A DNA stretch of 64,000 nucleotides, taken from UHGV virus genome UHGV-0212524; one strand, written 5' to 3'. Shown here piece after piece: positions 19,498-36,671 of the stretch. This DNA comes from a virus. A program made the position numbers and the translations under genes. Below the pieces are notes generated by a model. The model had not been told where the DNA came from, searched no databases, and was given only the letters and a program-made list of their open reading frames with translations. Numbering within the stretch: the first letter of the stretch is position 1; each line of letters begins with the position of its first letter.

Positions 19498-20346
19498 ATG
19501 TCTCTTACGTCAAAACAGAAACTGCTAAAACTCATCAACACTGAAAACAATATTAGTCCACCGTTGACTTTCAGTGATGTTGATATCGGAGAACCTACCG
19601 GTACTGGGGTTGATACCCAGGTGGTTCTGACCTCTAAACTCAAAGGCGATGAGTCTACTACTTTAACAGTGACTTACCACCGTCGTAATTTACCTGACTA
19701 CTTAACCGGTGAGTTGGTATTCGGTAACGACAGTGTGGTAACCGCATCAGATTTGCTTAATGCGATCAACGCAAAATACAGCCTAAATATTTTACCCTCG
19801 GATATCGTTGACGCAAAAGTTGAAGGCGAAACCCATCAGCTTACCGCTAACGAGAAATCTTACGAGTGGTGCGGTGTAGTAACGCTTACGCTGCATGATC
19901 CTATTGACCTGACTGAACTTTTACCAGTTACTCAATTAGAGAATCTGGTAGAGTATCCGTCCACTAAGAAAGGTAACGCTGCGGTTTATTCACACCCGAT
20001 TGATTTCACCGCAGAAAAAGATTACCTTGACCCGATTACTATCAACGACACCGTAGACTTGGTAGAGTTAGCCTCTAAACTGGATGGCGTCGTTGATGAG
20101 AAATGGGTAAGTGTACCTAAGAACGCGGCTAACAACCTGTACGGTGCTAAAGTTATTTACGATGGTCCAACCGCAGGTTACGAAGGCGCAAATACGAAGT
20201 TCACTCGTGTGTTGGTGCTAACGCTCAGCCCGCTGTGTTCTAACCTGACCGGTAACCTGTTAATTCACTTTAACGGTACCGATCGTCCGAAGTCGAAGAT
20301 TGAATTAGCACAGACTAATCCGGTCTTACCGGGATTCTTAGATTAA
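19498..20346 (+). CDS. hypothetical protein, distant paralog family A (282 aa)
   Basis: Segment SDLLNAINAKYSLNILPSDI resembles the ...NLQP.DL... segment of family A. Confidence 0.5.
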   Translation: MSLTSKQKLLKLINTENNISPPLTFSDVDIGEPTGTGVDTQVVLTSKLKGDESTTLTVTYHRRNLPDYLTGELVFGNDSVVTASDLLNAINAKYSLNILPSDIVDAKVEGETHQLTANEKSYEWCGVVTLTLHDPIDLTELLPVTQLENLVEYPSTKKGNAAVYSHPIDFTAEKDYLDPITINDTVDLVELASKLDGVVDEKWVSVPKNAANNLYGAKVIYDGPTAGYEGANTKFTRVLVLTLSPLCSNLTGNLLIHFNGTDRPKSKIELAQTNPVLPGFLD

Positions 20347-20359
20347 GAGGATTACAGTA

Positions 20360-20839
20360 ATGACCAATCAAGAAACTATCTTCGACCTTATTAAAAAGGC
20401 TAACCCGGACGCTGAGTTCGACACCACCAAAGTCACGCTGGGCGATCCGGTTGTGACCACCGGTACTTACAATACCGAAATCACAGTTGCGTCAATTAAG
20501 AATCTCGGTTACACTAACGAACAAACGTTCCAGTATAACCGCATTGACGCAGGTTTGTATTTCCTGAACGTATTACCGAAACTGTTGGTAGAATCTGCAA
20601 CGACTACCGCTGACTTACTGCCCGTCATTAACGAGCAGTACAGCCTAACCCTTACAGAAGACGACGTGTGGGTAGAACAGGTTGGTGAGTTACCGTTGGA
20701 CGGTAGCGCAATCGAACACGGTATTTTCTTCCGTCCTGAGTGTCTGACTTGGGTCGGCGGTTTTACGGTGCGTGTTGCACGTAAACCGGCTGTTGAAACA
20801 CCGCCAGCTAAGCCATCACGCGCTAAGAAGAAAAAATAA
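20360..20839 (+). CDS. hypothetical protein, paralog of the 19498..20346 product (159 aa)
   Basis: ADLLPVINEQYSLTLTEDDV parallels the neighbouring gene; Lys-rich C-terminus. Confidence 0.5.
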   Translation: MTNQETIFDLIKKANPDAEFDTTKVTLGDPVVTTGTYNTEITVASIKNLGYTNEQTFQYNRIDAGLYFLNVLPKLLVESATTTADLLPVINEQYSLTLTEDDVWVEQVGELPLDGSAIEHGIFFRPECLTWVGGFTVRVARKPAVETPPAKPSRAKKKK

Positions 20840-21600: not shown

Positions 21601-22275
21601 GTGTGGGTAATGGAAAAGCTTCAATATAAACGTTTAGATAATAAGTGGTTTGTATTAACGGAGGATTACCATTATCCGTTTACGTTACGTGAGATTTATC
21701 ACGACCACGTACACTTAGACCGTGCGGTTTATTTAACCGGTGTATTACCTGACACGCAACTGTGGTTAACCGCTCCGAAAGGGTTCGTTACCGATTTAGC
21801 GTCAATTCCTGAACACTTACAGGGAATTTTCCATCCTGACGGACCGTGGGCACCTGCGGCCTGCATTCACGACTTACTCTATCAAAAATGTAACACGGAG
21901 CGTAGCTATCCCATGACACCGGGTGGTAACGTTTCGCGTATTATCGATAAAGAGTTCTCTGACTTAACATTCCTGCGTATTATGCAGTCGTTGGAAATCT
22001 CGCCGTATATCTGCCAAACATTTTATAAAGCCGTGGCGGGGTTCGGTTGGGATGCTTACGTAGACCCTAACGCGAAGCCGTCTTATACCACTAACGATTA
22101 CCGTACGTTAGATTACAATCGAAACTATTTGTTCGTTCGTGAGTTTAAGGAGCCTGCTATTCCTGACCACGAACGTGTTGATATCACCACAGGTTGTCCC
22201 GTTAATGTCAAATACTTGAACATCAAACGGGCTTTTCTGTCTGGGAGGGAAGATGTTTCATCCAAATCCGAGTAA
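21601..22275 (+). CDS. DUF1353 family protein (224 aa)
   Basis: FVTDLASIPEHL ... ACIHDLLY matches the DUF1353 signature (TD.ASIP ... HD.LY), recalled. Confidence 0.55.
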   Translation: MWVMEKLQYKRLDNKWFVLTEDYHYPFTLREIYHDHVHLDRAVYLTGVLPDTQLWLTAPKGFVTDLASIPEHLQGIFHPDGPWAPAACIHDLLYQKCNTERSYPMTPGGNVSRIIDKEFSDLTFLRIMQSLEISPYICQTFYKAVAGFGWDAYVDPNAKPSYTTNDYRTLDYNRNYLFVREFKEPAIPDHERVDITTGCPVNVKYLNIKRAFLSGREDVSSKSE

Positions 22276-23506: not shown

Positions 23507-24043
23507 ATGGCTAAAACCTTCAAACTGCAGTTCGTCGAAGCTGTAATTGCTAAAAACCCAGGAACCGCTTCTAATCTGACGGTTGATGATGTCGATTTTG
23601 GTGCTGTCGAAGCGCACAGCGGTACCGGTGGTCGTAACACCAAAATTACGCTGACCGCCAAGGCAGAAAGCCAGAACTTCAAAGGCGAGAAAGAATTCCA
23701 CTACATTCGTCTGGCTTCTCAAGACCTGATCGGTGCCAAAGCTTACGAAAAAGCCGGTAGCCTCGATCTGGAAAACTCTGCCATTGTAACCAAACTGAAC
23801 GAAGAAATGGTTACTAAAGGTTATGTCGATGACTATTTCGCTGAAAGCGAACTGACCATTGAGAAAACTGACGGGGATAGTGGTGCTAAAGTTTACACTG
23901 TCAAAGTAAACGATGCACACATTAAATTCCTGGCTGGTACTATTGCCACCTTCACTTATTCCAACCCAGCTCCTGAGAAGGTAGCGCTGAGCGGTCTGGA
24001 AGGTGAACTTGATGGCTTCACTGCACCGGGTGTCGGTGGCTAA
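23507..24043 (+). CDS. hypothetical protein, paralog family B (178 aa)
   Basis: Paralog of the next gene (both contain NFKGE and end in DGELDGFTA); codon usage visibly biased (ctg/ggt/acc). Confidence 0.6.
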   Translation: MAKTFKLQFVEAVIAKNPGTASNLTVDDVDFGAVEAHSGTGGRNTKITLTAKAESQNFKGEKEFHYIRLASQDLIGAKAYEKAGSLDLENSAIVTKLNEEMVTKGYVDDYFAESELTIEKTDGDSGAKVYTVKVNDAHIKFLAGTIATFTYSNPAPEKVALSGLEGELDGFTAPGVGG

Positions 24044-24112: not shown

Positions 24113-24643
24113 ATGGCCGCTACTAACCAGATGATGTTGGTCGCGCTTTATAATGCTGCTAACGCTGAGCTACCGCATCAGATTACAGATAAAGAAGTGT
24201 CCTTTGGTCTCCCTACTGCGCTGGAAGGCGAAAGTAAGAATACCAAAGTTACCATGACCGCACTACCGGGTTCTGAGAATTTCAAAGGCGAAATCGAACT
24301 GCATTACGATCGTCTGGAGCCGGGTGTTGTAGGACGGATTGAACTAACTGACGATCTGTCTCGTTGGGTTCAAGAAAATGAACTCCGCGCTTGGTTACAG
24401 CTATACATCAACAAAGTAAAACCTGACGACGCTATCGCGCCAGGTGACGTTGTGTACAGCACCGAAGACCAGAAAGACGAACATGAAAACGTCACTCTGC
24501 GTACCGTGACATGCACCGTTACTGAACAGAACCTCCGTTATAAACCGGGTGTAATGGCAACTTTCGTAATTACACCGAAGGTAGTCGATAATCGTATTGA
24601 CCTGGCCACCACCGACGGTGAATTGGACGGTTTTACTGCTTAA
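24113..24643 (+). CDS. hypothetical protein, paralog family B (176 aa)
   Basis: Paralog of the 23507..24043 product. Confidence 0.6.
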   Translation: MAATNQMMLVALYNAANAELPHQITDKEVSFGLPTALEGESKNTKVTMTALPGSENFKGEIELHYDRLEPGVVGRIELTDDLSRWVQENELRAWLQLYINKVKPDDAIAPGDVVYSTEDQKDEHENVTLRTVTCTVTEQNLRYKPGVMATFVITPKVVDNRIDLATTDGELDGFTA

Positions 24644-24680: not shown

Positions 24681-24716
24681 TACCTACCTCCTTTACGGAG
24701 GTAGGTATTTTTTATT
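24681..24716. terminator. bidirectional terminator
   Basis: tacctacctcc tttac ggaggtaggta followed by ttttttatt; abuts the stop of the convergent minus-strand gene. Confidence 0.7.
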
Positions 24717-25386
24717 CTAATCCCATTTCCAGCGCAAGTGCACGGATCGTGTCGTAGTCACGCTGTTCGGCGTACTGACGAATTTCACTTTTCTGGGCAG
24801 ACATCGCGTTGTGTAGCTGTTGGTCACGTTTCACAATAGCCGCCATTAACGCTTTACATTGCTCCAGCGTAAACGGTTCTATACGTGTATTCGACGTGTC
24901 CAGCCAATAATCCGGTGCAGTTTCAGACTGGATATATTGACCCAGCATCTGACGAGAGGTTTCATCCGCTTGGAAATGATGGCCGTCAACTTCGATATAA
25001 CCGTGACGCTGGTCTTCGTATCGGTGTTCAATTTCCAACATGATTTTCTGGATATCTAAATAGATATAGCGAGACGTCGAGCGCATATTCGAACGAATCT
25101 CGTCCAGGTTAATCTCCAGAACGTCAGTAATGAATTCTTTTGCTTTGTTCAGTGTAAACTTCGCCTCAATAGGAGACATTTCGTAAGTTTGCATCTGAGC
25201 TAAAGCTTCTTCATCACTCATCCCTTCAATCAACTTATAGTGCAGTAATGCACAGAACCCCGTACGACCACGGTCTTCGTTACCTACACGTTCCATGTAG
25301 TTACCGTGGCGGTCAATTGGCAGATCGTGCGCGAAATAACGCGCCCGAATCTCTTCTTTCGTTAAGCTTTTGTTAGAAGCAGACAT
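24712..25386 (-). CDS. hypothetical protein, last gene of the radical-SAM cluster (224 aa)
   Basis: Intact ORF; overlaps the upstream gene by about 25 nt; no motif recognised. Confidence 0.55.
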   Translation of the reverse strand: MSASNKSLTKEEIRARYFAHDLPIDRHGNYMERVGNEDRGRTGFCALLHYKLIEGMSDEEALAQMQTYEMSPIEAKFTLNKAKEFITDVLEINLDEIRSNMRSTSRYIYLDIQKIMLEIEHRYEDQRHGYIEVDGHHFQADETSRQMLGQYIQSETAPDYWLDTSNTRIEPFTLEQCKALMAAIVKRDQQLHNAMSAQKSEIRQYAEQRDYDTIRALALEMGLE

Positions 25387-25952
25387 TCTTCTTCTCCAAC
25401 CATACCTAATTCTTGCAGCAAGCCAAAATCAACCAACTGGAAGGTTTCAGAGAGATCGTTTGACCACACCACGTTTGCAATGTCGCGTTCTTCATCCGTT
25501 AACTGTGGTAACACATTTTCGTTGAACGTCTGATGCTCTACGTAATAAGCATCGTAGATAGACGTAGAACGCAAGCAACGGATTGGCAGACGCGGGAAAG
25601 ACACCGCTAATGCAGCAATAGATGCGCTACTCGGATTCTCCGCAGAATAACGAAGCAATTCGATCTTGTGGCGTGGGTAATCCAGTACGCGTTGTTCGAA
25701 ACCCGGATTACGTTTTTCGATTTCCACAACGGACTCATGGCCTGTCTCTGTACAGTAAACGGGAATCATCACGTTTAGCCCGTACTTAATCAACAGAGGT
25801 TTAATCTCATCTGTAAAGTCTTCACCAGGGATAATGGCGTGAACGTTATAGAGTTTGTGTTTGCGCAGAAAACGCTCAACCAGGTGGAGTTTACGCTTCG
25901 TAAAATTGTGGATCAGAATTGATTTCATTATTTGCCTCAGTAGGTTGTGCAT
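25362..25952 (-). CDS. hypothetical protein in the radical-SAM cluster (196 aa)
   Basis: Intact ORF overlapping both neighbours (start may be the internal Met at 25928). Confidence 0.5.
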   Translation of the reverse strand: MHNLLRQIMKSILIHNFTKRKLHLVERFLRKHKLYNVHAIIPGEDFTDEIKPLLIKYGLNVMIPVYCTETGHESVVEIEKRNPGFEQRVLDYPRHKIELLRYSAENPSSASIAALAVSFPRLPIRCLRSTSIYDAYYVEHQTFNENVLPQLTDEERDIANVVWSNDLSETFQLVDFGLLQELGMVGEEECLLLTKA

Positions 25953-27225
25953 TTAACGCACGTTTAGCTTGCTCACGCTCACGCGTACATTTCGGACAGT
26001 AACAAACAGACGAATCGTGCAGTGACGATGCGTGGACGGTGCCTGTACGTTGACGCCAGTATTCTGCCGCCATCAGTTTTGCGGTCGTCCAACCACATTG
26101 ACGTCGTTCAGCGTGGTACGCCTTACGGTCTTCCAGTGTCCCTTCACCGTTTTCGTAGGAAGCAGCTGCACAGCTCCCACAACCGTGTTTCATCGGACAA
26201 CCTAAGCACGTTTCAGGATAGTTGGTGTATTGCGTCTGAATCTCTTCCAGCAGTTTCCCGCCGTCTAAGCTAACAAACTCACGACCGACTAACTCAAACA
26301 CCGCAGAGCGTGACGTTACCGTTGACATGAATCGGTTACAACCATACACCTTACGGTCAAAACCTAAACAAGTCATAAACGTCAACGTCCCACAGAACGG
26401 ACGTAAACGTTCAGGGTTATAACGGTGCGTGTCGTCGTACAGCAGTTTATCACGCCAATCTGGGTCCCAAATCTGACGGAAATCCAGACCTTCAGGAATG
26501 ATGTGGGACAACACGTTACGTGGATTGGTGTGCAGCCCTTTCTCAATCCAATAATCCATCACCTCGATCATCTGCAACGCAATATCCGTTGCCATGCTCC
26601 GTGGAAGGATATCTTCGTACGTCACGTTACCCGAAATCGTACCACCACCCGCAATATCGATTAACGACTTCATACTCGCCGCGTAATGCGGGAGGGTTTC
26701 GGTTGTAAAGGTTGCCTTGATACCCAGTTCAGCAATACCCACTTCTTTTAAGTAGTTATAGCCACGAACAGCGGCTTCGTAAGAACCCTGACGCGTCGTG
26801 GTAAAGATACGATAACGGTCATGGACTTCTGGCAGCCCGTCGATAGACACACCGATGGAGAGTTTGTCTTTCCAACGCTCGACGATCTCACGGTTTAACG
26901 GACGGTCTAACAACGTCCCGTTCGTGGAGATACTGAACATATACGGTCGATTATGCTCCTTACACAACTGTTCTGCGGTTTCAAACGCCGCTAACAGCAG
27001 TTTCGGTTGCATAAAAGGTTCGCCGCCGATGATATCAATAATGACGTCGATGTTCGGAATATCTTTATCACGCTCAAAACAGGCGTGTAAGAAATCCACG
27101 ATATCCGCCGCTTTGTTATTACGCGGATACTTACGTTCGTAACAATACTCACAGTCTAAGTTACAAGACAGGTTCGTTACCACCTGGTAAGTACGTTGTG
27201 AACGTGGTGCTTCATTATTGCTCAT
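25891..27225 (-). CDS. radical SAM enzyme with SPASM-like C-terminal Cys-rich domain (444 aa)
   Basis: N-terminal CNLDCEYC (CxxxCxxC binding site for the SAM-cleaving 4Fe-4S cluster); C-terminal cysteines (CLGCPMKHGCGSC ... CYCPKC) typical of auxiliary-cluster SPASM/twitch domains. Confidence 0.8.
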   Translation of the reverse strand: MSNNEAPRSQRTYQVVTNLSCNLDCEYCYERKYPRNNKAADIVDFLHACFERDKDIPNIDVIIDIIGGEPFMQPKLLLAAFETAEQLCKEHNRPYMFSISTNGTLLDRPLNREIVERWKDKLSIGVSIDGLPEVHDRYRIFTTTRQGSYEAAVRGYNYLKEVGIAELGIKATFTTETLPHYAASMKSLIDIAGGGTISGNVTYEDILPRSMATDIALQMIEVMDYWIEKGLHTNPRNVLSHIIPEGLDFRQIWDPDWRDKLLYDDTHRYNPERLRPFCGTLTFMTCLGFDRKVYGCNRFMSTVTSRSAVFELVGREFVSLDGGKLLEEIQTQYTNYPETCLGCPMKHGCGSCAAASYENGEGTLEDRKAYHAERRQCGWTTAKLMAAEYWRQRTGTVHASSLHDSSVCYCPKCTREREQAKRALNAQPTEANNEINSDPQFYEA

Positions 27226-28132
27226 CTTTGCTTATCCTTTTACGCTCTGCATAAATCACGCGTTTAATGTACTCGTAAGCACCTACCCCGATAGAGCAAG
27301 CAAGCTGATTGCACCCACCGTTTAAGATAGCCGGTGCATTCTGAAGCTGATGTTCTGTTCCATCTGCGTTCAAATACAACTCTTCGCTACAGACATTACA
27401 CTCGTTTTCGAAAATCTTGCTGACAGACACGCCGCACGATTCTCCGGTTTGGACGTTCAGCCGTTCCATATTCTCCTGAATCTTTAAATAACCATAAACG
27501 AAGTTCATGATGTGATCGGGAGACAACGGTTTTGGCATTTGGGCATCAAACATCAGAGAAAACGCACGGGGACGATAGTGGTACATCGCACGATGTAAAT
27601 CCACAATATCTTCATACCAGCGCTTATCGGCTAACTGGTCACGCGTAATCACAGCCCAGGTTTGGAAGTTATCGAGTTCGTATAACGCTTCCAGTGCTTC
27701 GTGGCTATCCTCTTCAATAAAGCGCATAAAAGGGCGCTCAGAACGTTTGTAGCCATCAATTGATACAAACACATGCTCAAAGTCTTTTAGCAGCGTAAGA
27801 TGCGATTTACGCAGTTTTAAGCCGTTGGTATACAAGTGATGCTCAAGGTGCGGATGAGACACTTTCAGTTCGTTAACGAAATCCTCAATCTTACGTTGGA
27901 CGAGTAGCGGTTCACCACCCGTCCAATGTATTTCCTTAATAGCTGGATTCTCTTGTAGTAATTCCAGGATACGTTCGCGTTGAAAAGCACGAGACGAATC
28001 TTCACGATTCATGTAGTAGGCTCCACCGCAGAAACTACAGTCTAGGTTACACTTAGACGTCGTAACTACGGACAATATAGTGGGTTTATCGTACAACTTC
28101 GTCGAGATCCTGGATTCCACATTGTCTATCAT
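27215..28132 (-). CDS. radical SAM enzyme (305 aa)
   Basis: TSKCNLDCSFCGG (CxxxCxxC) and GGEPLL glycine-rich motif; C-terminal cysteines (CNVCSEE, GGCNQLAC); 11-nt overlap with the downstream radical SAM gene. Confidence 0.75.
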   Translation of the reverse strand: MIDNVESRISTKLYDKPTILSVVTTSKCNLDCSFCGGAYYMNREDSSRAFQRERILELLQENPAIKEIHWTGGEPLLVQRKIEDFVNELKVSHPHLEHHLYTNGLKLRKSHLTLLKDFEHVFVSIDGYKRSERPFMRFIEEDSHEALEALYELDNFQTWAVITRDQLADKRWYEDIVDLHRAMYHYRPRAFSLMFDAQMPKPLSPDHIMNFVYGYLKIQENMERLNVQTGESCGVSVSKIFENECNVCSEELYLNADGTEHQLQNAPAILNGGCNQLACSIGVGAYEYIKRVIYAERKRISKDEQ

Positions 28133-28152
28133 TGCAGGTTGCTCCAGTATTT

Positions 28153-29040
28153 TTAAATATAATCGATGGCGAATAAAGGATCTTCGTCGAAGTTAACACC
28201 GGGTTTTAAAATCAGTGGCGAATTATACGCTTCCAGTAAACGGTTAAGTTCGTTGTAGCGGCTATTCATCCGTTTGAGGTCTTCTAAGGTCACAACACGG
28301 TCAAGCATCGGCTTAACTGCTTCGGCTTCTTCGTCAGTCAGTTTAACTTTCGACAGCAAGAAGCTGACGAGTTTGGAAATGTCCGCTTCGGTAGCTGGGC
28401 TCTGACCAAAACGTACCTGAACCATATGCTGCATCCACGGTTTACGAATGCGTTTCGTAATCACGTGTTCGTCAGTGATGGCTTTCCAAACCGAACGTTC
28501 ACGAATCCATTCGAACTTATAGCTGTACGCCATTAAGTCGGCCAGATGCGTAATTCCGAGTTCTTGATAGCCTTCAATATCGATATACGGTTCCGTATCA
28601 AAATACTCTTTGGTATCTTTTTCAACCAACGCGTAATAGTTAGGGAACGCACCCAGGTAGTCTGGACTCCACCAACGACGGGCCATTGGTTTAGCATCGA
28701 GTTCTTCAAACGGTGTGAACATAAGTTCTAAGTCAACTGTATTATTTAACACACCGTCGCTAAAGAAATATTTACCGTCGATAAGTTTACCGCGTTGTGA
28801 GTTGTCACCGGTAAAGACAACGATGCTTTCGCCAACCATATCACGAATTTTGAACGTATTCTCAACCGTAAAGTTGTCACGATTAGCGATATGACGACCA
28901 CGCACTTTCGGCCATTCCCCAGGAATCATGGCAATTAAGCGTACATCATCAGCAAGATGGTGACGTACCGAATCAGGGGAAGAGATGTGAAGTGGATGAT
29001 TGAACGTTGTCGTATATGCAAGATGTAGATCGTTCTTCAT
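28153..29040 (-). CDS. hypothetical protein in the radical-SAM cluster (295 aa)
   Basis: Intact ORF between the peptide genes and the radical SAM genes; no motif recognised. Confidence 0.55.
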   Translation of the reverse strand: MKNDLHLAYTTTFNHPLHISSPDSVRHHLADDVRLIAMIPGEWPKVRGRHIANRDNFTVENTFKIRDMVGESIVVFTGDNSQRGKLIDGKYFFSDGVLNNTVDLELMFTPFEELDAKPMARRWWSPDYLGAFPNYYALVEKDTKEYFDTEPYIDIEGYQELGITHLADLMAYSYKFEWIRERSVWKAITDEHVITKRIRKPWMQHMVQVRFGQSPATEADISKLVSFLLSKVKLTDEEAEAVKPMLDRVVTLEDLKRMNSRYNELNRLLEAYNSPLILKPGVNFDEDPLFAIDYI

Positions 29041-29161
29041 TGATTACTCCAATTATTTCACGGGTAGTATCTTTAGCGTCTAGCTCAGACCCAACATAAA
29101 CAGCAGCTTTGTTATCAAGGATGGTTTCGAAGGGCTTGGTATGGAACCACCACCAGAAGAC

Positions 29162-29371
29162 TTACCTGCCTCCCCCTGCACCTTTACTACAGCTACCACT
29201 GCACGCCCAGCTACAACTCCCATTACAGTTATAGTGAGTTAACGGTAATCCTGCCAAGTTATTCGTTGAGGACACCGTACCCTGATTAGCAATATAGTTA
29301 TTCGCATCTGTGGTTTTAATGTAGCCTTCAACCTGACCGATTCTGTCTCGAATATTTTTGAGGGAAATCAC
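29162..29371 (-). CDS. Cys-rich leader-core peptide, short paralog (69 aa)
   Basis: Leader MISLKNIRDRIGQVE... then HYNCNGSCSWACSGSCSKGAGGGR; paralogous to the two longer peptides. Confidence 0.6.
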   Translation of the reverse strand: MISLKNIRDRIGQVEGYIKTTDANNYIANQGTVSSTNNLAGLPLTHYNCNGSCSWACSGSCSKGAGGGR

Positions 29372-29381
29372 TTCTCACCTC

Positions 29382-29777
29382 CTATCGTCCTGTGCACGAC
29401 GAGCAGCCACCGGTACAGCTACTGGAGCACGATGCTGTACAGCCGCCCGTACAAGTGCCCGAGCACGCATTAGCGCACCCACCCGAACAACTCCCCGAAC
29501 ACCCTGAACAGCTACTTGAACACCCTGACGTACAGTTTGCAGAGCATGAAGAACCGCAACCACCAGACGCGTTCCCTGTACAGCCACCAGAGCAACTCGA
29601 GCAGGTAAAGGAACACGTGCCCGCACAGTCATAATGCGCACGATTCCGACCACCGAACAGGTCCGCGTTATTCGTGGCCTTATTGCGGATGTAGTTCTGT
29701 ACACCTGTGGTGTTTTTCAGCGCGATACTATCGACGTTATTAAGACGTCTTACTAATTCAGCTAATCCAACCGCCAT
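29382..29777 (-). CDS. Cys-rich leader-core peptide, RiPP precursor-like (131 aa)
   Basis: About 48-aa leader then a core of about 25 Cys in a C-x2-3-C ladder (CAGTCSFTCSSCSGGCTGNASGGCGSSC...CTGR) with only Cys/Ser/Gly/Thr/Ala/Asn. Confidence 0.65.
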   Translation of the reverse strand: MAVGLAELVRRLNNVDSIALKNTTGVQNYIRNKATNNADLFGGRNRAHYDCAGTCSFTCSSCSGGCTGNASGGCGSSCSANCTSGCSSSCSGCSGSCSGGCANACSGTCTGGCTASCSSSCTGGCSSCTGR

Positions 29778-29786
29778 TTCTTCCCC

Positions 29787-30179
29787 CTATCGACCAGAGC
29801 AACCGCCGGAGCAAGCACCCGAACAGTTATGCGAACAACGCCCAGTACAACTTCCAGTACAGGTACTTGTACAACTGCTAGAACAAGCCCCCGAGCAGCC
29901 AGAGCATCCCGAACAGTTGCCCCCACAGGACGAAGAGCAGCTACCCACGCACGACGCTGAACAGTTTCCTGAACAGCTCGAGCAACCGTGAGTACATCCG
30001 TTAGAACATGTCCACGAACACGCTCCTCCGCAGTCTAAACGCGAAGGCGTCCAACCGGAAAACGAATCTGCCGCGTTATGCGCTTTCGATGCGACCTGCG
30101 CATTGACACGAGGGCCGGTAGCGACTGTATTTTCTACTGTGGTTAACCGATCGCGCATTTGTTTAACACTAATCGCCAT
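29787..30179 (-). CDS. Cys-rich leader-core peptide, RiPP precursor-like (130 aa)
   Basis: Leader MAISVKQMRDRLTTVEN... then CGGACSWTCSNGCTHGCSSCSGNCSASC...CSGR; RBS aaggaag upstream. Confidence 0.65.
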   Translation of the reverse strand: MAISVKQMRDRLTTVENTVATGPRVNAQVASKAHNAADSFSGWTPSRLDCGGACSWTCSNGCTHGCSSCSGNCSASCVGSCSSSCGGNCSGCSGCSGACSSSCTSTCTGSCTGRCSHNCSGACSGGCSGR

Positions 30180-30203
30180 TACGCTTCCTTAAAATTAAAA
30201 TAG

Positions 30204-30235
30204 AGGAGGAACCAGCCATAAGCATAGTTCCTCCT
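30204..30235 (-). terminator. hairpin between the fibre gene and the Cys-rich peptide genes (terminator or attenuator)
   Basis: On the minus strand aggaggaac ...loop... gttcctcct followed by ctattttaatttt. Confidence 0.45.
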
Positions 30236-30244
30236 GTAATTAAA

Positions 30245-31450
30245 TTATTTCGTACCCGCTTCCGCCTGTACGTCATCACGAGACGTCAGGTTAGCGTTAA
30301 CGTGTACTGGGGCCTGAACCACACCACCGTATCTCTTGTGGAGATAACCGGTGTGCGGGTTATCTGCCGCGATGTGGTTTTGTAGGTTCTGGTTCGCTTG
30401 ACTGATTGCGTTCGTGTTATTGTTAACTTGCTGTTTAAGCGCATCCAGGTTCTGTTGTACCTGATCGATTTTCTGATCGGTTTCTTGACCCTGTTGCTCT
30501 AACGCGGCAACACGCTGAATAACCTGATTCAGTTTTGTGTTTAAATCGTTGATGCTCTTTTGCAGTTGTAACACTAACGAGTTCAGGTTCGCTAACGCTA
30601 AGGCCATTTTCTGGTAGTTTTGAGCAACCACGTTAAGTTGGTCGTTCCACGCTTCCAGAGAGTTGACAACAGCGTCAATACGCTTACCTAAAGCTTCGTC
30701 CGCTTTCTTCAGTGCATTGATTTCCGTAATCGTTGCGTCGATGGCAGACTGGACGTCACGAATAAGCGCACGGATTTCAGTTTCTGTTAACCCGTTAACC
30801 TGATGAATATCAAGATGGTGAACGTTACCGGTTGCGTTGATGTGTGCATTTAAAGCGTCTAAGAAGTCATTTTTCAGGCTTTCTAAAATCGCTTTAATGT
30901 TCTCTAACTGTACCGCGTCACCGGAACTGATCGCATCTTTAATACCCGCCAATACGGTAATGATATATTCAAAACCGTAGATGTCACCCACGTCTTTATA
31001 CGTCGGTGCAGATGGGAATGTATCCGGTACGTTACGCAGGTCTTTAAACGCAATCGTACGGTTATCGAGGTTTAATTCAGCAATCGCCTGTTCGATAGCC
31101 ACAATGTTCGCAGACTGTGGACCACCAACGACCTGCGCAGATACCGTAATATCTGTTGGAATCGCTGTGTTAGTGACCACCACCGCCATAACAATCTCGC
31201 GGTTTTTAGTCAGCTTTTCATAAGTCGGGTGTGCAAAAATCAACTCATAATCGGTACCACGTTCGTAGGTTGCATCCGGTCGGTTAGCAACACGTAAACG
31301 GAACGTGTCCGCAAAGAACGGGCCGTCAGGAAAAGCAAAAGCACGGTTTACTTTACCTGTACCTAACGTAATCTGACGCTCTACAGCGTTAGACGTTAGC
31401 GAGCCCGTTAAATCTAAAGGATATTGATAAACAATGGAGGCCATGGCCAC
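30245..31450 (-). CDS. short coiled-coil fibre protein with shared fibre N-terminal anchor motif (401 aa)
   Basis: N-terminal FPDGPFFADTFRLRV...GTDYELIF matches the anchor motif of the three large fibres; the C-terminal 200 aa is heptad-rich (LNSLVLQLQKSINDLNTKLNQVIQRVAALEQQ). Confidence 0.65.
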   Translation of the reverse strand: MAMASIVYQYPLDLTGSLTSNAVERQITLGTGKVNRAFAFPDGPFFADTFRLRVANRPDATYERGTDYELIFAHPTYEKLTKNREIVMAVVVTNTAIPTDITVSAQVVGGPQSANIVAIEQAIAELNLDNRTIAFKDLRNVPDTFPSAPTYKDVGDIYGFEYIITVLAGIKDAISSGDAVQLENIKAILESLKNDFLDALNAHINATGNVHHLDIHQVNGLTETEIRALIRDVQSAIDATITEINALKKADEALGKRIDAVVNSLEAWNDQLNVVAQNYQKMALALANLNSLVLQLQKSINDLNTKLNQVIQRVAALEQQGQETDQKIDQVQQNLDALKQQVNNNTNAISQANQNLQNHIAADNPHTGYLHKRYGGVVQAPVHVNANLTSRDDVQAEAGTK

Positions 31451-31484: not shown

Positions 31485-34400
31485 TTAAGATGTAAACATA
31501 AGATTGAACTGGAGTTTGTCGATATCGCGAGTTTCCGCCGGATTCACGGCATCGTACGCGGTCGCTACGTAAACGGTTAGCGTACCGTTAGCGTAAGACG
31601 ATTTCACCGGTGGGTTAGTTCCGGTCTGACCATCTCGGACAATGAGCGTAGGTTCACTCGGGAGATTGTCAAACTGACCCTTGACCGCTTTATACACCAA
31701 ACCAGATTGCGCAGCCAGTTCAGTGTCCGTAAAGACAAAGAACGGTGTGTCGATATCAGCCTGCTTGACGATGGTGTTCGATTCAACGTCAATCAACTGT
31801 ACCGCCCCAAACTTCGTACGATAACTTTCATACTCGTTCTTCGGAATAACGAACGTGACATGAACACGAACCTCCTCGGCAGGTTTAAACCCACTGTGCT
31901 CTTTTTCCAGGTACTGGTTGGCGGTTAACGTTACCGTTTGTTCAGTCATCGTACCACCGGCCTGGTTTAATGCATACCGAGCTTCAACAATACCGGTTGG
32001 TGCAGCAAGTCGTAGTTTCAGAGCACGATTCGCCGTTCCTGGATTACCTGGCACCTGAACACGCAAACTCAATGCTAAGTAAGCATTCGTTCCGGTAGTC
32101 GGTTTCGTATACGCACCAATCCATTTCATGTTCGCAGACGCTGCCTGCATGTTCTCAGAAGCAGTGGCTGTCGCAATGTTAGCAGCTACCGCTTTCTGCC
32201 AGAATTGGTCAGCGCAGTTCTCATACGCTACCCTGGCCACGCTCTTATAACCCGAATACGTTTCCTGAATTGGTAACTTAGGACGCGTCGTAATGCCGGA
32301 CAGTGAACCCCATTTCTGACCGTCAACATACCCTTCACCTTTCGACGCAGACGCCGTAGGTGCTTTAACGGGCTTGTTAACCAGTGTTAATAGAGGACCC
32401 GTCTTTCTGTCAAACGCTGCTGCTACATCGTGTTGGTCGATAATTGCTGCGTGGTCTTCCAGTTCTTTCACACGACCCAAACGTTTTACTTTGTCGATAC
32501 TGATACCAGTAATACGGCTGGAATCGGTGGTTACTGTCCCAACGAACAGTCTTGTTGAGGTATCGGCTAACTGCTCCAAACCGATGCGGTATTGCGCGGT
32601 AGAACCCGACACCTCAGCGTGCACGTAGAACGTCTGGTTAGCGTGATTGGATGGGAACTCACTGCTTAAATCCACAGACCACGTTGGGAGTGTGTAACTG
32701 CTGCTACCGAAATCTAATTTGACTTCTTCTGTCAAATACAGAATCCAACCTTCCGCTGTTTCCACACCGGCAATAATAACCGCCTGACCTCCGGTTGAGA
32801 ACGTCGTGTCGTTAACGAACTCTGCGGCTGTATACGCGTTACCTGAACAGAAAACACGGTCAGCTTTAGAGTAAATCAACGCCATCTTGTCCCAATCACC
32901 GGCACCCATATAGCACCCAGATTCTGGTCTATGTTCAGGGGCCATCTGCCGTAACTGTGATTTACCTGCAACGCGTGTCCAACCTGAACCAGGGTCGAAG
33001 GTATATTTAGCAGCGTAGCCCAGGGCGTTTAAGTCCCCGATATTTCGGGTAGTTAACGTATAAGGTAACCAGATACCGAAGTTAGTTCCATCCGCAGATG
33101 CAAAAATAGGCTGCCCCACGCGCCTCGTTTTACCTCCCGCTCCCCCATTTAGTGACTGATAACTTAAACCATAATCGAGGTCTAAGAACCAGTCCACCAA
33201 CTTAAAGGTGGCTGAGTTGAAACGTAAGTAGCCGTTCTCTTTAGATGGGCTCACCATGAAGTAATAGATGTCAAGAATTCGACGTCCGTTACTTGAGGTT
33301 TTCATGCACGAAACTTGCAACAAGTCAAATTCGCACACGGTGTTGATACCCAACATCCAAAGAGCAAACAATGCATTACCGGTTTGATGTGCAGCACTAA
33401 TACGTTCGTTCGCGTAACCATTTGCTTGACCAGATGGCGCACCGTCAACGATCATCCGAATCATTTTCTGCCGATCGGCTTCTTCTAGCGTTAAGCGTTC
33501 GGAAGACAATGCGAAGTTACCGTAGATGTTACGATACGGGAACGTTTCTGCTTTGGTCAAATACCAGCCGTTCAACTGTCCATGACGCTCCTCAGGGATC
33601 ATGCACGCAGCCATACAGCTAAGCTGCTCGTAAAGCGTTGGATCGACTTCACGACGGTTGTTGTTCGGACCGTACCCACTATACCCAGAAACATCGTAAG
33701 GTTTGTTCGGATCAACTTCCACTTCGATCGTGTAACGGTTACGAGGGTTCGATAACCAGACCTTATTCGAACCACCAATCCCTACTGGATAAGACAAACC
33801 GATGGTGTAAATGGAGCCACGGCCTTTATCCCAGGTAAACGTTCCTTCGCCCGAGGTGTTGTTTGGGTTATCGTAACGCAGATAATCGAAAAGCTCTCTG
33901 CCTTGTGTACTCTTAATAGAAACATTAGGCATTTGGTCCGCATCGGCAATTTGCCAACAGGAAAGCATCATTCCTGTACCGTTGGGTTTAGCATACGTCG
34001 CGAAACAACGGTTGTTTGCCTGGCCACCACCCCACTTACGATTGGTTCCTACAGTTGAACCATCTGCGAACGAGAGTGTAGTAGTAGCATCAGCCTTGAT
34101 GGGGAAGCGTTCGCGGCCTTCTAACGTAACCTTGCCCGTCAACGTATCGATTGTAAAACTTGTTGCCCATTGAAGGAAATTAATCGTCGTACCGTCGGCC
34201 GCTGCAAACCACACGGTAGGCATATGGTTCACACGAATCACGCTATCGCGCACAGCACACGCGTGGTTACATTCTGGACCGTGAACAAAGTTACGCCCGA
34301 TCGTCCATTTAGCACGACCCTCCGGTGTGAGATATGTAAAGAATTGACCCGTTTGCGACTCTTCGGTTTTCTGACCAATACGCAAGCAGAGGTTATCTCC

Positions 34401-36671
34401 GAATTGTCCCATCTCGCCGGTTAGAGTTACACGTTCAAATTCTAACGTAGTGTTAGTAGACAAATCGGCCTTACGTAGACGCCAAGCTGCTACGGCGTAA
34501 GCGGAGTTATTTACCGTTGAACGGAGAAGATAAACGTAGTCCTCAACCAACACGACATCGTCAGCTTCCGGCCACGGGTTCCAGGTTTGTTCCACAGTAC
34601 CACTGGGGTTGCCGTTACGGTACACGGGCATCGTAACGCGACATACCACCGTGTGCTTAGTGTGGTCCATCGAGCCATTAAACAGCACCAAATAACGGTT
34701 ATTGTCAGAACCCAGGCAAATAATCGCTTCCTGGCCACCGATCAATATCGCTATTAGGGTCACCCCAGGATATTTACTCATCCCGGCAGGGTGATATTTC
34801 ACTGAGGTCTGCTGCGGATTTACAAACGCGTTTGACGTGTCAATGTCAGCATAGCCGTAATAAATAGCTTCCGTACCCGGCACGCCGTTAGAACCGTTAC
34901 GGAGCGAATAAACCTTACCCTGCTGATACCCAACAACCCCTTTCTGGTAGGACTGGTTTTTGGTATAGCCTGCGTAGTTACCTAACGCTGGGATAGGTAA
35001 GAAGTTCTTGTTACCGAATTTCGCTCCACCTACCGTCCACGCCGGTAAGATGGTATTCAGTTTATCAGAGACCTTCTTAATCTCTTTTGCGAACAACCAG
35101 CCTTGACGCGACGTGACAGCTTTATCGTTAGTGGTGTCAATTGCATCCCAGAGCTGTAAGATACCGTCAACCGTTGCACTACCAATCGGGACGTTATCCA
35201 AGTCAGCAGTGGTGTGGGTGTGCGTTTTCAAACTCTTGTTTTTCAACACGTTCGTTAACGCTTTTGTCACAGGCTTATCACTCGGTATGGTGTTATCCAT
35301 CTTATCGATACCGAAATCGGTTTTCGTTAAGGTTAACACCATATTGTCGCCTGTTTTAACAAACCCTTTACCGTTAACGGTATAGTCATCGTCAACGTAC
35401 AAGTCCAAGCGGTCTTTTAATTCTGTTACAGCTTTCTGGGAGATAGCAGTACCTAACGCCGCAGACGTAGAGATATTCGTAATCGAGAACAACCCATAAA
35501 CTGATTCGGACGCCGTGGGAATATTCGCGTTTAACGTAACCGGGTTAGTCTGTTTTGCGGTACCGTACGGTTTTACAGTGTCTGACGCTTTGAAATACGC
35601 GTTTGCTTCAAGCAACGTTACTGACGTCAGATACATGTTCACCATTTCTGGTGTAACCAGGTACACGGAGTTATAAACTGGCGCTAATACGTCCTGTTCC
35701 GACCCCGAGTGAACCCAAAGCGTATTCAGACCCGCACTGAATTCAACCGCTAAACCCGATTCGTTGTTGTCCTGGTCTGCTTTAATCACCAACGGTTGTG
35801 GCGAGGTAATTAACCACTTATCACCACGAATACTGATGATGTGGCCACCTGACGTTTTAAACGTTAATTCATTACCGTTCGTGGTACCCCATCGACCGTA
35901 AACGGTGCCGAGGGCTTCACCCATTAACTGGTCAACGTCCGATTGCTCAATACCCGCTGAACCCATCAGCGTAGCCAACTCGTCAATCGTCAACCCAAAC
36001 GCTTTTGTAGCGTCAACAGCACGACCTAATACCGGGAGAGCAGCAATGTCATCAGTGGTATAATGATGCGCGTTAGGGTTACGGTGATGCTGGTATAACT
36101 CTTCGTCGAAAACCTTTTTACCGTTCTCGTAAATCAAGTTAGTGACTTCACTGAACGCAGCATCTAATTCCGTAGAACGTTTGATGATTTTCTTGCGAAT
36201 GTCTTCTAACGCCTTAACAACCTCATCCCTCAGAATCGCTTCTTCTAAGTTAGCAGGCGGGTCGATAGGCTGAATAACCGGCGCATACGCCATTAGTTCA
36301 GACCAGTCCACGTTACGTGGGTCTTTCAGGTCAGTACGAACTAAGAACTTCCCGATTTCAGATTGCGGTACACGGTATTGACGTGCTACCCCTAAAATCT
36401 CATATTCGATTTCTGTTGCAGTAAGCAACATAAACCCGCCGTAAATCTGATCTTGTTCAGCTTCTGCGAGTTCTTTAAAGTAATAGCCTAAATAGTAGTC
36501 CAACCCCTCAATCAGAGTACGACGTCCGTTAGGCGCGGTATCGTCGGCTACTGTGAGTTTTAATCCGATACGATAAAAAGGTCCTTCAGGCGGAATGACC
36601 ACGTTAAATCGGTTAGGGTACGTCGCTGTGCTTAGCGTACCGTTAAACTGCGCCGCGTCTTCTCTCGGCAT
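31485..36671 (-). CDS. large tail fibre or tail spike protein (1728 aa)
   Basis: N-terminal anchor motif PPEGPFYRIGLKLTV...GLDYYLGY shared with neighbouring fibres; size and position in the structural block. Confidence 0.7.
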   Translation of the reverse strand: MPREDAAQFNGTLSTATYPNRFNVVIPPEGPFYRIGLKLTVADDTAPNGRRTLIEGLDYYLGYYFKELAEAEQDQIYGGFMLLTATEIEYEILGVARQYRVPQSEIGKFLVRTDLKDPRNVDWSELMAYAPVIQPIDPPANLEEAILRDEVVKALEDIRKKIIKRSTELDAAFSEVTNLIYENGKKVFDEELYQHHRNPNAHHYTTDDIAALPVLGRAVDATKAFGLTIDELATLMGSAGIEQSDVDQLMGEALGTVYGRWGTTNGNELTFKTSGGHIISIRGDKWLITSPQPLVIKADQDNNESGLAVEFSAGLNTLWVHSGSEQDVLAPVYNSVYLVTPEMVNMYLTSVTLLEANAYFKASDTVKPYGTAKQTNPVTLNANIPTASESVYGLFSITNISTSAALGTAISQKAVTELKDRLDLYVDDDYTVNGKGFVKTGDNMVLTLTKTDFGIDKMDNTIPSDKPVTKALTNVLKNKSLKTHTHTTADLDNVPIGSATVDGILQLWDAIDTTNDKAVTSRQGWLFAKEIKKVSDKLNTILPAWTVGGAKFGNKNFLPIPALGNYAGYTKNQSYQKGVVGYQQGKVYSLRNGSNGVPGTEAIYYGYADIDTSNAFVNPQQTSVKYHPAGMSKYPGVTLIAILIGGQEAIICLGSDNNRYLVLFNGSMDHTKHTVVCRVTMPVYRNGNPSGTVEQTWNPWPEADDVVLVEDYVYLLRSTVNNSAYAVAAWRLRKADLSTNTTLEFERVTLTGEMGQFGDNLCLRIGQKTEESQTGQFFTYLTPEGRAKWTIGRNFVHGPECNHACAVRDSVIRVNHMPTVWFAAADGTTINFLQWATSFTIDTLTGKVTLEGRERFPIKADATTTLSFADGSTVGTNRKWGGGQANNRCFATYAKPNGTGMMLSCWQIADADQMPNVSIKSTQGRELFDYLRYDNPNNTSGEGTFTWDKGRGSIYTIGLSYPVGIGGSNKVWLSNPRNRYTIEVEVDPNKPYDVSGYSGYGPNNNRREVDPTLYEQLSCMAACMIPEERHGQLNGWYLTKAETFPYRNIYGNFALSSERLTLEEADRQKMIRMIVDGAPSGQANGYANERISAAHQTGNALFALWMLGINTVCEFDLLQVSCMKTSSNGRRILDIYYFMVSPSKENGYLRFNSATFKLVDWFLDLDYGLSYQSLNGGAGGKTRRVGQPIFASADGTNFGIWLPYTLTTRNIGDLNALGYAAKYTFDPGSGWTRVAGKSQLRQMAPEHRPESGCYMGAGDWDKMALIYSKADRVFCSGNAYTAAEFVNDTTFSTGGQAVIIAGVETAEGWILYLTEEVKLDFGSSSYTLPTWSVDLSSEFPSNHANQTFYVHAEVSGSTAQYRIGLEQLADTSTRLFVGTVTTDSSRITGISIDKVKRLGRVKELEDHAAIIDQHDVAAAFDRKTGPLLTLVNKPVKAPTASASKGEGYVDGQKWGSLSGITTRPKLPIQETYSGYKSVARVAYENCADQFWQKAVAANIATATASENMQAASANMKWIGAYTKPTTGTNAYLALSLRVQVPGNPGTANRALKLRLAAPTGIVEARYALNQAGGTMTEQTVTLTANQYLEKEHSGFKPAEEVRVHVTFVIPKNEYESYRTKFGAVQLIDVESNTIVKQADIDTPFFVFTDTELAAQSGLVYKAVKGQFDNLPSEPTLIVRDGQTGTNPPVKSSYANGTLTVYVATAYDAVNPAETRDIDKLQFNLMFTS

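Follow-up and report, generated by a model that had tools for sequence, protein, structure and literature searches.

The locus described here raises the question of why a phage should encode two radical S-adenosylmethionine (SAM) enzymes beside a set of small cysteine-rich repeat proteins at the end of its tail-fibre genes. It lies within a stretch of 64,000 nucleotides (nt) from the UHGV virus genome UHGV-0212524 (the window), which derives from an SPN3US-like jumbo phage and shows approximately 73 % nucleotide identity to SPN3US and Erwinia phage pEa_SNUABM_29 across the module. A preliminary description of the window had proposed a locus for a peptide made by the ribosome and modified after translation (RiPP), in which the enzymes modify three leader-core precursors. 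It was found that the Cys-rich repeat, a ladder with Cys at nearly every fourth residue, is a tail-fibre domain in other phages, and that the ladder and the enzyme family are tightly linked. On balance, and at somewhat better than even probability, we regard the block as a tail-fibre maturation module whose enzymes cross-link a fibre-associated ladder rather than as a bacteriocin cluster.

The eight minus-strand open reading frames (ORFs) of the preliminary description were confirmed at their coordinates (24712-30179). They correspond to SPN3US gp161-166, or to gp170-gp161 in SPN3US numbering when the upstream fibre genes are included. In order of transcription, with lengths in amino acids (aa) and E-values (E), they are:

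29787..30179, minus strand: Cys-ladder protein 1, 130 aa with 21 Cys; phrog_6085, E 1.6e-36
29382..29777, minus strand: Cys-ladder protein 2, 131 aa with 20 Cys, paralogue of protein 1; phrog_6085, E 1.6e-42
29162..29371, minus strand: Cys-ladder protein 3, a short form of 69 aa with 4 Cys and a GTG start; phrog_6085, E 1.6e-25
28153..29040, minus strand: 295-aa accessory protein, SPN3US gp165 orthologue
27215..28132, minus strand: 305-aa radical SAM enzyme, SPN3US gp164 orthologue; Pfam Radical_SAM, E 8e-15
25891..27225, minus strand: 444-aa radical SAM/SPASM enzyme, SPN3US gp163 orthologue; Pfam Radical_SAM, E 5e-14; phrog_1802, E 8e-114
25362..25952, minus strand: 196-aa protein, SPN3US gp162 orthologue; phrog_7988
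24712..25386, minus strand: 224-aa DUF4376 protein, SPN3US gp161 orthologue; Pfam DUF4376, E 5.8e-11

Recurrence of the module and its link to tail fibres

Homologues of the 444-aa enzyme were examined together with their neighbourhoods, and loci are cited by number where they need to be told apart. The first group (63 records, 60-100 % identical) comprised jumbo phages (SPN3US, Erwinia and Cronobacter CR5), and among cultured phages the SPASM enzyme was confined to it. The second group (30-40 % identical) came from nominal bacterial genomes that proved to be prophages. In Campylobacter pinnipediorum, a P2-like tail module encoded a 384-aa Phage_tail_fib protein with the C-terminus GCNGCSGSCSGSCSSGCTACSGCSGSC, a 250-aa protein and then the enzyme pair. 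The corresponding order in Deferribacter abyssi was a lambda-J-type tip protein, a 302-aa fibre ending in KATNADQLGGQAGSYYRCSDCSWTCSSSCTGSC with a ladder of approximately 110 aa, a 250-aa protein and the enzymes. The same pattern, with T7-type, collagen-like or fibre-repeat proteins, was present in nine more loci (L107, L109, L110, L185-188 and others).

In seven loci (L024, L025, L107, L109, L110, L187 and L188) the ladder formed the extreme C-terminus of a tail fibre. These ladder-tipped homologous fibres were 258-508 aa long, showed fibre repeats, collagen-like runs or an N-domain matching Pfam Phage_tail_fib, and were located after GpJ or baseplate genes. In L185 and L186, an uncalled ladder ORF of approximately 75 aa, with an N-terminal part of approximately 14 aa, directly followed a T7-type fibre gene. 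The junction motif NAD.L.G.....Y.C..CSWTCS, present in the N-termini of the window's ladder proteins, was also found before the ladder in the fibres of L024, L110 and L187. The N-terminus of approximately 50 aa that had been taken as a leader peptide therefore carries a motif shared with full-length fibres of unrelated prophages, and the leader-core interpretation was not supported. The accessory protein and enzyme pair were the same in P2-like, lambda-like, T7-fibre-type and jumbo modules, which had no protease or exporter.

The third group (25-28 % identical) consisted of many IMG/VR contigs, in which some enzymes scored above the cut-off of TIGR04115, the maturase of the 'CXXX-repeat target family'. 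The ladder proteins of this group had an N-domain of approximately 120 aa and up to approximately 90 Cys, matched phrog_6085, and had baseplate-wedge, tail and tail-fibre PHROGs as their genomic neighbours. The radical SAM gene of L159 was immediately preceded by a gene of phrog_2163, the family of a 401-aa virion protein encoded directly upstream of the ladder genes in the window. TIGR04115 scores were 522 bits for L033 and 434 bits for L112, both passing the cut-off of 350, and 155 and 144 bits for L024 and L025. L033, a bacterial TIGR04115 locus in a Lachnospiraceae metagenome-assembled genome, is a classical RiPP cluster with 61-aa CXXX peptides, the non-radical-SAM maturase TIGR04119 and ABC transporters.

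The association between enzyme and ladder was assessed in both search directions. A same-strand ladder ORF was located within 4 kb in 92 of the 105 loci with a full-length match (at least 300 aa) to the enzyme, versus 17 of 78 loci matching the core only, several of which are truncated family members (Fisher p = 5e-20). In the reverse search, which started from the ladder N-domains and did not reference the enzyme, the enzyme lay 700-924 nt downstream in all 56 untruncated loci (those in which the ladder ORF is flanked by 3 kb or more on each side); the 11 loci without an enzyme all end within 1 kb downstream of the ladder gene. The ladder proteins are thus the statistically linked partner of the enzyme, and ladders lacking a radical SAM neighbour, which would have counted against the pairing, were absent from the 56 loci with full flanks. 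A DNA scan for seven Cys codons at a 12-nt period was uninformative, since the matches listed were dominated by simple tandem repeats reading as Cys.

Gene organization also ties the two enzymes to each other and to the ladder. In a 284-kb viral contig (L109, 7137-9197), the small radical SAM and SPASM enzymes were fused in a 686-aa ORF with two Radical_SAM domains, which is a Rosetta-stone link between them. In L016, from a related jumbo phage (4564-5475; SPASM enzyme 84 % identical), and also in L006, a 303-aa copy of the small radical SAM enzyme was located between ladder genes 1 and 2. Modules contained two to three different radical SAM enzymes.

Several related arrangements were also observed. 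The proteins P0101 and P0102 (668 and 634 aa) may be similar radical SAM fusions. In L187 (5306-8134), a lambda-like prophage or phage contig, a ladder-tipped fibre and an accessory gene of 277 aa were followed by three consecutive radical SAM genes (274, 301 and 377 aa). In Candidatus Termititenax aidoneus (L028, 5384-7399; also L027, L029 and L030), proteins of approximately 500-670 aa with 74-122 ladder Cys were encoded beside a near-TIGR04115 enzyme; L028 is close to a FliI/type III secretion-type ATPase gene, and the context of these termite-gut Margulisbacteria loci may not be phage. Two small viral contigs (L017, 4069-4540; L018, 7471-7939) encoded a more distant radical SAM enzyme and, immediately upstream of it, a different kind of Cys-rich peptide pair, in which the spacing is C-x2-C (CLTCQTCNSCFNCDSC).

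Properties of the Cys-ladder proteins

The three small genes were confirmed as true paralogues, including the N-terminal 50 aa or so (BLASTP E 2e-14 for protein 2 and 2e-8 for protein 3). Each was preceded by a strong Shine-Dalgarno site. The genes were kept in the same frame and order in 16 SPN3US-like loci, with three genes in 13 and two in 3, and protein 3 was conserved in SPN3US and the Erwinia phage. In comparisons with relatives, the synonymous rate (dS) was saturated and the nonsynonymous rate (dN) was 0.11-0.36, with omega 0.06-0.35 where computable. The ladder genes are real and under purifying selection; the possibilities of recent DNA tandem repeats, an artefact or non-coding sequence were rejected on the basis of the Shine-Dalgarno sites, the selection and a check for DNA repeats.

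Cys made up 25-26 % of the ladder cores compared to 1.1 % of the window's long ORFs, with Cys-Cys spacings of 4 (292 cases), 3 (59) and 8 (8) and a consensus unit of C-(S>G,T)-(G>S,A)-(G,S,T). In protein 1, an N-terminal region of approximately 49 aa, comprising a predicted helix and the junction motif KAHNAADSFSGWTPSRLDCGGACSWTCS, was followed by an 81-aa C-(S/T/G)-G-x ladder. Protein 3 had the N-terminal region and junction of its paralogues and a ladder of just 20 aa or so, such that the original account of three Cys-ladder peptides describes proteins 1 and 2 well and needs correction for the third, with its 4 Cys and GTG start. Asp and Glu were entirely absent from all three cores, as were aromatic residues suited to cyclophanes and a sulfatase C/S-x-P-x-R motif. 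Two ladder proteins, protein 1 with 19.5 bits and one other with 17.6, scored slightly below the cut-off of 20 for TIGR04114, the curated target repeat of TIGR04115, and the Cys repeat is plain by eye.

The AlphaFold model of protein 1, built from a shallow alignment, had a predicted local distance difference test score (pLDDT) of 39, with no autonomous fold and support for the N-terminal helix alone. This predicted lack of a fold is compatible with a region that would gain order only through modification or assembly. PDB sequence searches with one ladder protein and one ladder-bearing fibre gave no meaningful match.

Public annotation of these genes is poor. In SPN3US (NC_027402; L001, 10238-11267), gp166/ACQ60_gp100 is a wrong-frame ORF over the orthologue of ladder gene 2, and genes 1 and 3 are unannotated. 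In the record of Erwinia phage pEa_SNUABM_29 (L002, 9412-10434), two opposite-strand coding sequences, 00267 and 00268, overlie the ladder genes. Because gene callers miss ladder genes, relatives are few in protein databases, with just 8 among 5.8 billion predicted proteins. A literature search found no paper on PF27846, the label on some of these 8. The PHROGs family of the ladders, phrog_6085, has no assigned function. The N-terminal tryptic peptides predicted from the SPN3US ladder proteins include VQIVEANMATGPR and IDAQVASK.

Radical SAM enzymes

Both enzymes were confirmed as radical SAM proteins by Pfam Radical_SAM and Fer4_12. In the 444-aa enzyme, the SAM-cluster CX3CX2C is formed by C21, C25 and C28 (residues 21-28), and the auxiliary-cluster Cys 278, 296, 340, 343, 349, 352 and 377 were invariant or nearly so among 25 homologues. 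The SPASM domain suggested by the preliminary description is therefore present in full by its seven conserved Cys, but the Pfam SPASM model did not fire, and the terminal CYCPKC that had been taken as a SPASM feature is not conserved within the family. The SPASM motif CLGCPMKHGCGSC is CX2CX5CX2C, in which the last spacing is X2 instead of the X3 of the canonical CX2CX5CX3C.

The expectation that the larger enzyme is a peptide-modifying maturase was supported by its best family matches. Its top NCBIfam match was TIGR04115 (5.6e-36, 124.8 bits vs the cut-off of 350), followed by PapB (NF047865; 7.5e-32, 110.8 bits vs a cut-off of 340). Further matches were the geopeptide, HxsB (74.4 vs 370 bits) and cyclophane-forming families, with anSME (56 vs 349 bits) and NirJ far weaker. 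The best solved relative was the SCIFF thioether synthase CteB (1.3e-12). The radical SAM motif begins at residue 21, compared with residue 106 in CteB, so the enzyme lacks the N-terminal recognition domain of approximately 100 residues found in CteB and has no N-terminal extension of the RiPP recognition element (RRE) type.

The 305-aa enzyme has a CX3CX2C motif at residues 28-35; the family alignment also shows a CxC...GC trio, conserved at the C-terminus, which resembles an auxiliary site of the twitch type. Its NCBIfam matches were generic (HxsC, 1.3e-12, 47.2 bits vs a cut-off of 267.9; MoaA; tungsten-cofactor maturase), and its matches to solved structures (viperin-like, SkfB) extended across the core only. 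It is homologous to the small radical SAM enzyme of the prophage modules (E 1e-13). A relationship to TIGR04119 was rejected (E 0.24 against the TIGR04119 protein of L033), and TIGR04119 was not matched by any module protein in NCBIfam.

Best matches to well-characterized non-peptide enzymes had been named as grounds for refutation, and no QueE, NrdG or sulfatase-maturase match emerged as best family for either enzyme. Assignments as QueE, NrdG, MoaA or anSME were rejected, since the matches cover the generic radical SAM core and fall far below cut-offs, and no sulfatase gene or C/S-x-P-x-R motif was present in the module. Classification of the module as a known defence system was likewise rejected, its similarity to defence components being limited to the same core. 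The database labels in SPN3US are 'putative radical SAM superfamily protein 1/2'.

Tail-fibre operon and virion proteomics

The remaining features of the operon are:

45283-31485, minus strand: three giant fibre proteins of 1440, 1394 and 1728 aa, the 5'-most genes of the operon
31485..36671, minus strand: the 1728-aa fibre protein, homologue of SPN3US gp168 ('baseplate/tail fiber candidate'); phrog_7449
30245..31450, minus strand: 401-aa coiled-coil virion fibre protein, homologue of gp167, which was found in virions; phrog_2163, E 7e-103
24681..24707, no strand assigned: bidirectional terminator-like hairpin with an 11-bp stem, closing the minus-strand tail-fibre/ladder/radical SAM operon directly after the module

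The module is therefore at the 3' end of a tail-fibre operon, between the gp167-170 homologues and the DUF4376 protein. The proposed tail-fibre setting was upheld, as the genes upstream have SPN3US gp167-170, which are 'baseplate/tail fiber candidates' of the virion, as their homologues. The gp167 homologue, encoded directly upstream of the ladder genes, is a candidate attachment partner of the ladder proteins. No peptidase or protease and no transporter or exporter was detected among the module proteins in Pfam, NCBIfam or PHROGs.

The AlphaFold model of the 295-aa protein (pLDDT 87, predicted template modelling score 0.82) has an alpha/beta N-domain and a helical C-domain, and a fold search with it returned no PqqD-like or other known fold relative. 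The family is tiny, with 41 representatives in 1.84 billion proteins, half of which have the C-terminal helical domain in common and nothing more. This helical half is homologous to the prophage proteins of approximately 250 aa (E 6e-12), whose gene is placed between the ladder-bearing fibre and the radical SAM genes in unrelated prophages. We propose that the 295-aa protein is a substrate-presenting or chaperone factor.

The 196-aa protein was confined to SPN3US-like phages (16 loci) and had no Pfam or NCBIfam match. The 3' end of the SPASM gene overlaps its annotated start by 62 nt (25891-25952) with no obvious Shine-Dalgarno site before that ATG, and its true start may lie downstream. The DUF4376 protein showed weak similarity to tail and tail-fibre PHROGs (phrog_8169, phrog_2837 and phrog_1807) and is probably a fibre assembly factor.

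Virion proteomics of SPN3US identified 86 proteins, including gp160 and gp167-173 and none of gp161-165 (Ali et al. 2017, PMC5694885, Supplementary Table 1). Both enzymes and the 295-aa, 196-aa and DUF4376 proteins are therefore non-structural, as expected of maturation or assembly factors. The mass spectrometry (MS) database did not include the ladder ORFs (gp166 being in the wrong frame), such that the 86-protein list is silent on the ladder proteins.

Proposed maturation of the ladder

We infer that the ladder is the substrate of the enzymes, a pairing supported by the family identity of the larger enzyme and its co-occurrence with the ladder. Under this model, the three Cys-ladder proteins would be small fibre-associated proteins, each combining a short helical N-terminus of the tail-fibre type with a C-(S/T)-G-x repeat. 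During late infection, in the reducing cytoplasm, the SPASM enzyme would turn the ladder Cys into intramolecular thioethers to neighbouring Ser, Thr or Gly carbons, and the twitch-like second enzyme would assist by adding a further reaction. The 295-aa protein would present the substrate in place of the missing RiPP-recognition domain, a role suggested by the lack of an RRE in the 444-aa enzyme. The product would be a chain of small rings, forming a rigid rod or tip that resists reduction and proteases. The matured ladders would then join the distal fibre apparatus (the gp167-170 homologues), possibly helped by the DUF4376 and 196-aa proteins, and the enzymes would remain in the cell.

Thioether formation appears the most economical chemistry because the nearest characterized relatives, PapB, CteB and QhpD, form links from the Cys sulfur to carbon. 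PapB forms C-alpha and C-beta links depending on the substrate (PMC12373016). As the ladder contains no Asp or Glu, the acceptors would have to be Ser, Thr, Gly, Ala or Asn carbons. Thioethers along the ladder would replace disulfides, whose formation is prevented in the cytoplasm, the site of virion assembly, by a link that is insensitive to redox conditions. Among the carriers of the module, many have gut or anaerobic hosts.

Alternative explanations

The alternative closest to the preliminary description is a released RiPP, in which a leader of approximately 50 aa and a ladder core are modified and freed at lysis as a toxin, competition factor or signal. The enzyme family is of the RiPP type, the bona fide bacterial TIGR04115 locus L033 combines its short CXXX peptides with ABC exporters, the ladder ORFs of L185 and L186 have little more than the ladder itself, and lysis would make an exporter unnecessary. 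However, no leader peptidase is present, the N-terminus is under purifying selection like the rest of the protein and bears the fibre junction motif, seven other loci have this ladder as a covalent part of full-length fibres, the module is always found in tail-fibre blocks across phage types, and a core of 80 residues with 20 Cys is far larger than known sacti- or ranthipeptides. We consider this explanation improbable, and the specific suggestion of a released toxin or competition factor was not sustained given the absence of a peptidase or exporter, unlike the canonical CXXX locus with its ABC transporters, and the position of the module at the 3' end of a tail-fibre operon. The modified ladders might instead act in the infected cell, outside the virion, as a fibre-assembly scaffold or chaperone, a redox or metal buffer, or an anti-defence factor. 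The non-virion neighbours gp161-165 would suit such a role, the HXS system shows that a radical SAM pair can mature a non-structural effector protein, and the virion MS list could not have shown the ladder proteins. This is also quite unlikely, if marginally less so than a released RiPP, as a purely intracellular role is hard to generalize when other phages have the ladder fused to structural fibres at the distal end, and no similarity to known defence components was found beyond the radical SAM core.

The ladder could also be an unmodified metal-binding or disulfide-forming fibre domain, with the radical SAM enzymes acting elsewhere or building and inserting a metal cluster. Cys at every fourth residue in the three chains of a trimer could coordinate metal ions, as iron is coordinated in the T4 gp37 needle; AlphaFold finds no fold for the ladder, and the chemistry of the family is not established. 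A SPASM enzyme of the peptide-maturase type is an almost obligate companion of the ladder whichever of the two is taken as the starting point of the search; this, the fusion of the enzymes to each other and their interleaving with ladder genes, and the lack of an alternative substrate conserved across modules make this explanation the least probable of the alternatives. More plausible, while still unlikely, is that the substrate and fibre role are the same and the chemistry differs, for example oxidation of Cys or Ser to formylglycine (anSME-like), epimerization or C-C/C-O cross-links, each enzyme perhaps carrying out one reaction. All of these reactions are catalysed by SPASM enzymes, the anSME, cyclophane-forming and HxsB families were among the weaker matches, and two to three different radical SAM enzymes per module suggest more than one reaction. 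The top matches and the invariant substrate Cys nevertheless point to thioether-forming relatives (TIGR04115, PapB, CteB, SCIFF and QhpD), and the ladder has neither aromatics for cyclophanes nor the sulfatase motif.

Several observations weigh against a cross-linked fibre component. No chemistry has been shown for the clade of the window enzyme or for the TIGR04115 family, and the enzyme scores well below the curated cut-offs (125 vs 350 bits; PapB 111 vs 340). PapB's native acceptor is missing from the ladder cores, which contain no Asp or Glu, and the low-complexity S/G/T ladder lacks the varied side chains usual for a receptor-binding surface. The window ladder is not fused to a fibre, so that its incorporation into the virion would follow by analogy, and the ladder proteins have never been detected in virions, though their ORFs were outside the SPN3US search database. 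Finally, canonical bacterial TIGR04115 loci such as L033 resemble secreted-RiPP clusters. Among the roles initially listed, a cross-linked virion component nonetheless fits the evidence best: fusion of the ladder to fibres, near-obligate co-occurrence with the maturase, the absence of a protease or exporter and the non-virion enzymes form a combination that no rival explains as well. The RiPP-type reading of the locus thus stands as regards the peptide-maturase-type SPASM enzyme and its linked ladder, and does not as regards an RRE, protease or exporter, which are absent, or the nature of the presumed substrate, which is a tail-fibre domain.

Comparison with known systems

The closest known system, the CXXX-repeat system of TIGR04114, TIGR04115 and TIGR04119, is bioinformatically defined, and no experimental paper on it was found. 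In both cases a repeat with Cys at every fourth residue adjoins a radical SAM/SPASM enzyme without an N-terminal RRE, TIGR04115 is the top match of the window enzyme, and many viral loci with phrog_6085 ladders carry bona fide TIGR04115 enzymes (e.g. L112). In contrast, the window enzyme falls well short of the TIGR04115 cut-off (125 vs 350 bits), its partner is a true second radical SAM enzyme unrelated to TIGR04119, the module adds the 295-aa accessory family and has no exporter where L033 has ABC transporters, and its presumed substrate bears a tail-fibre junction or is itself an entire fibre of the tail.

The ranthipeptide-type systems PapB/freyrasin, CteB/SCIFF and QhpD share the radical SAM/SPASM architecture and repeated Cys motifs, with six C-x3-D rings in freyrasin, and the native CSAND motif of PapB resembles the C-S-G-x of the ladder. 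They differ in that the window ladder has no Asp or Glu acceptors, the window enzyme has no RRE and leader removal is not evident. The presumed substrate is also larger (70-130 aa, or several hundred in the case of a fibre), and its Cys number reaches approximately 20 here and 90 elsewhere.

In the HXS antiphage system (HxsA/B/C/D), a SPASM radical SAM enzyme, a shorter second radical SAM enzyme and a small accessory protein mature a repeat-bearing functional protein (PMC13128918). It provides a characterized precedent for a radical SAM pair maturing a repeat protein, and HxsB and HxsC were among the matches of the window enzymes, whose scores were far below the cut-offs (74.4 vs 370 and 47.2 vs 267.9 bits). 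The repeat is H-x-S rather than C-x-x-x, no HxS repeats occur in the window, and HXS is a host-encoded defence whereas the present module is a phage structural one.

Virion proteins stabilized covalently, or dependent on a non-virion factor encoded 3' of the fibre gene, have precedents. The isopeptide chainmail of the HK97 capsid is a covalent cross-linking of a virion protein, and the tail-fibre chaperones (T4 gp57A/gp38 and Tfa proteins) are dedicated non-virion factors encoded directly after the fibre gene. HK97 cross-linking is autocatalytic, however, and the known fibre chaperones are not redox enzymes. To our knowledge, and in the literature searches, no radical SAM modification of a virion protein has been described.

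Novelty and implications

The initial impression that no phage system of this composition has been described agrees with the literature, in which none was found. Literature searches returned no paper linking the SPN3US radical SAM labels, phrog_6085, phrog_1802 and TIGR04114/04115, and none describing the ladder genes of SPN3US-like phages or proposing radical SAM modification of tail fibres. The pieces were already in databases; what is new is a substrate class and a biological role for RiPP-type radical SAM/SPASM maturation of Cys-rich repeats. There is in addition a systematic annotation gap, as public records either lack the ladder genes or give them an incorrect frame or strand.

The presence of the module beside or fused to fibres in many unrelated phages suggests enzymatic cross-linking of part of the host-recognition fibres. 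That phages from many lineages, namely the jumbo, P2-like, lambda-like, T7-fibre-type and gut phages, staple a tail-fibre Cys ladder with dedicated radical SAM thioether rings is a wider claim, to which we give slightly less than an even chance. If true, no earlier case would exist of a virion structural protein being cross-linked after translation by enzymes in the manner of a RiPP, and the modification would form a new class for virion proteins, moving RiPP-type radical chemistry from small secreted peptides into virus structural biology. The 'CXXX-repeat RiPP' family of the databases would in large part be a phage tail-fibre maturation system, providing a redox-proof substitute for disulfides in host-recognition organelles that are built in the cytoplasm and have to work in reducing or anaerobic habitats. 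Fibre stability, and perhaps host range, would have a new determinant, and the presence in some jumbo and gut phages of radical SAM genes, annotated without a function since 2011, would be explained. TIGR04114/TIGR04115 would gain a testable role in a tractable model, as SPN3US has amber-mutant genetics and virion proteomics, and the product, an 80-residue polymer with approximately 20 consecutive small thioether rings, would be of interest to peptide and biomaterial chemists.

Neighbouring genes and related genomes

Four DUF7941 paralogues flank the module on the plus strand (19498-20346, 20360-20839, 23507-24043 and 24113-24643). At the position of the last two, SPN3US encodes gp160, which the virion MS table lists as an abundant head protein belonging to paralogue family B. 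A DUF1353 protein is encoded approximately 2.4 kb from the module (21601-22275, plus strand); RefSeq annotates the orthologue in SPN3US as a tail assembly chaperone. In the Campylobacter prophage, the radical SAM pair is likewise directly followed by a DUF1353 gene (L025, 10068-10433), which may be a further recurrent partner or a coincidence.

Proteins identical to those of the window were found in IMG/VR contigs of 150-226 kb and on a 226-kb contig that NCBI lists under Salmonella enterica serovar Chester. Salmonella or E. coli is likewise the label of many SPN3US-like proteins. Jumbo-phage genomes therefore sit inside bacterial assemblies, via a carrier state or contamination. The Ralstonia jumbo phages PhiRP12 and PhiRP31 are reported to have adjacent radical SAM, Fe-S oxidoreductase, MoaA-like and MgoB-like genes (PMC5468394), possibly another phage cluster with multiple radical SAM enzymes.

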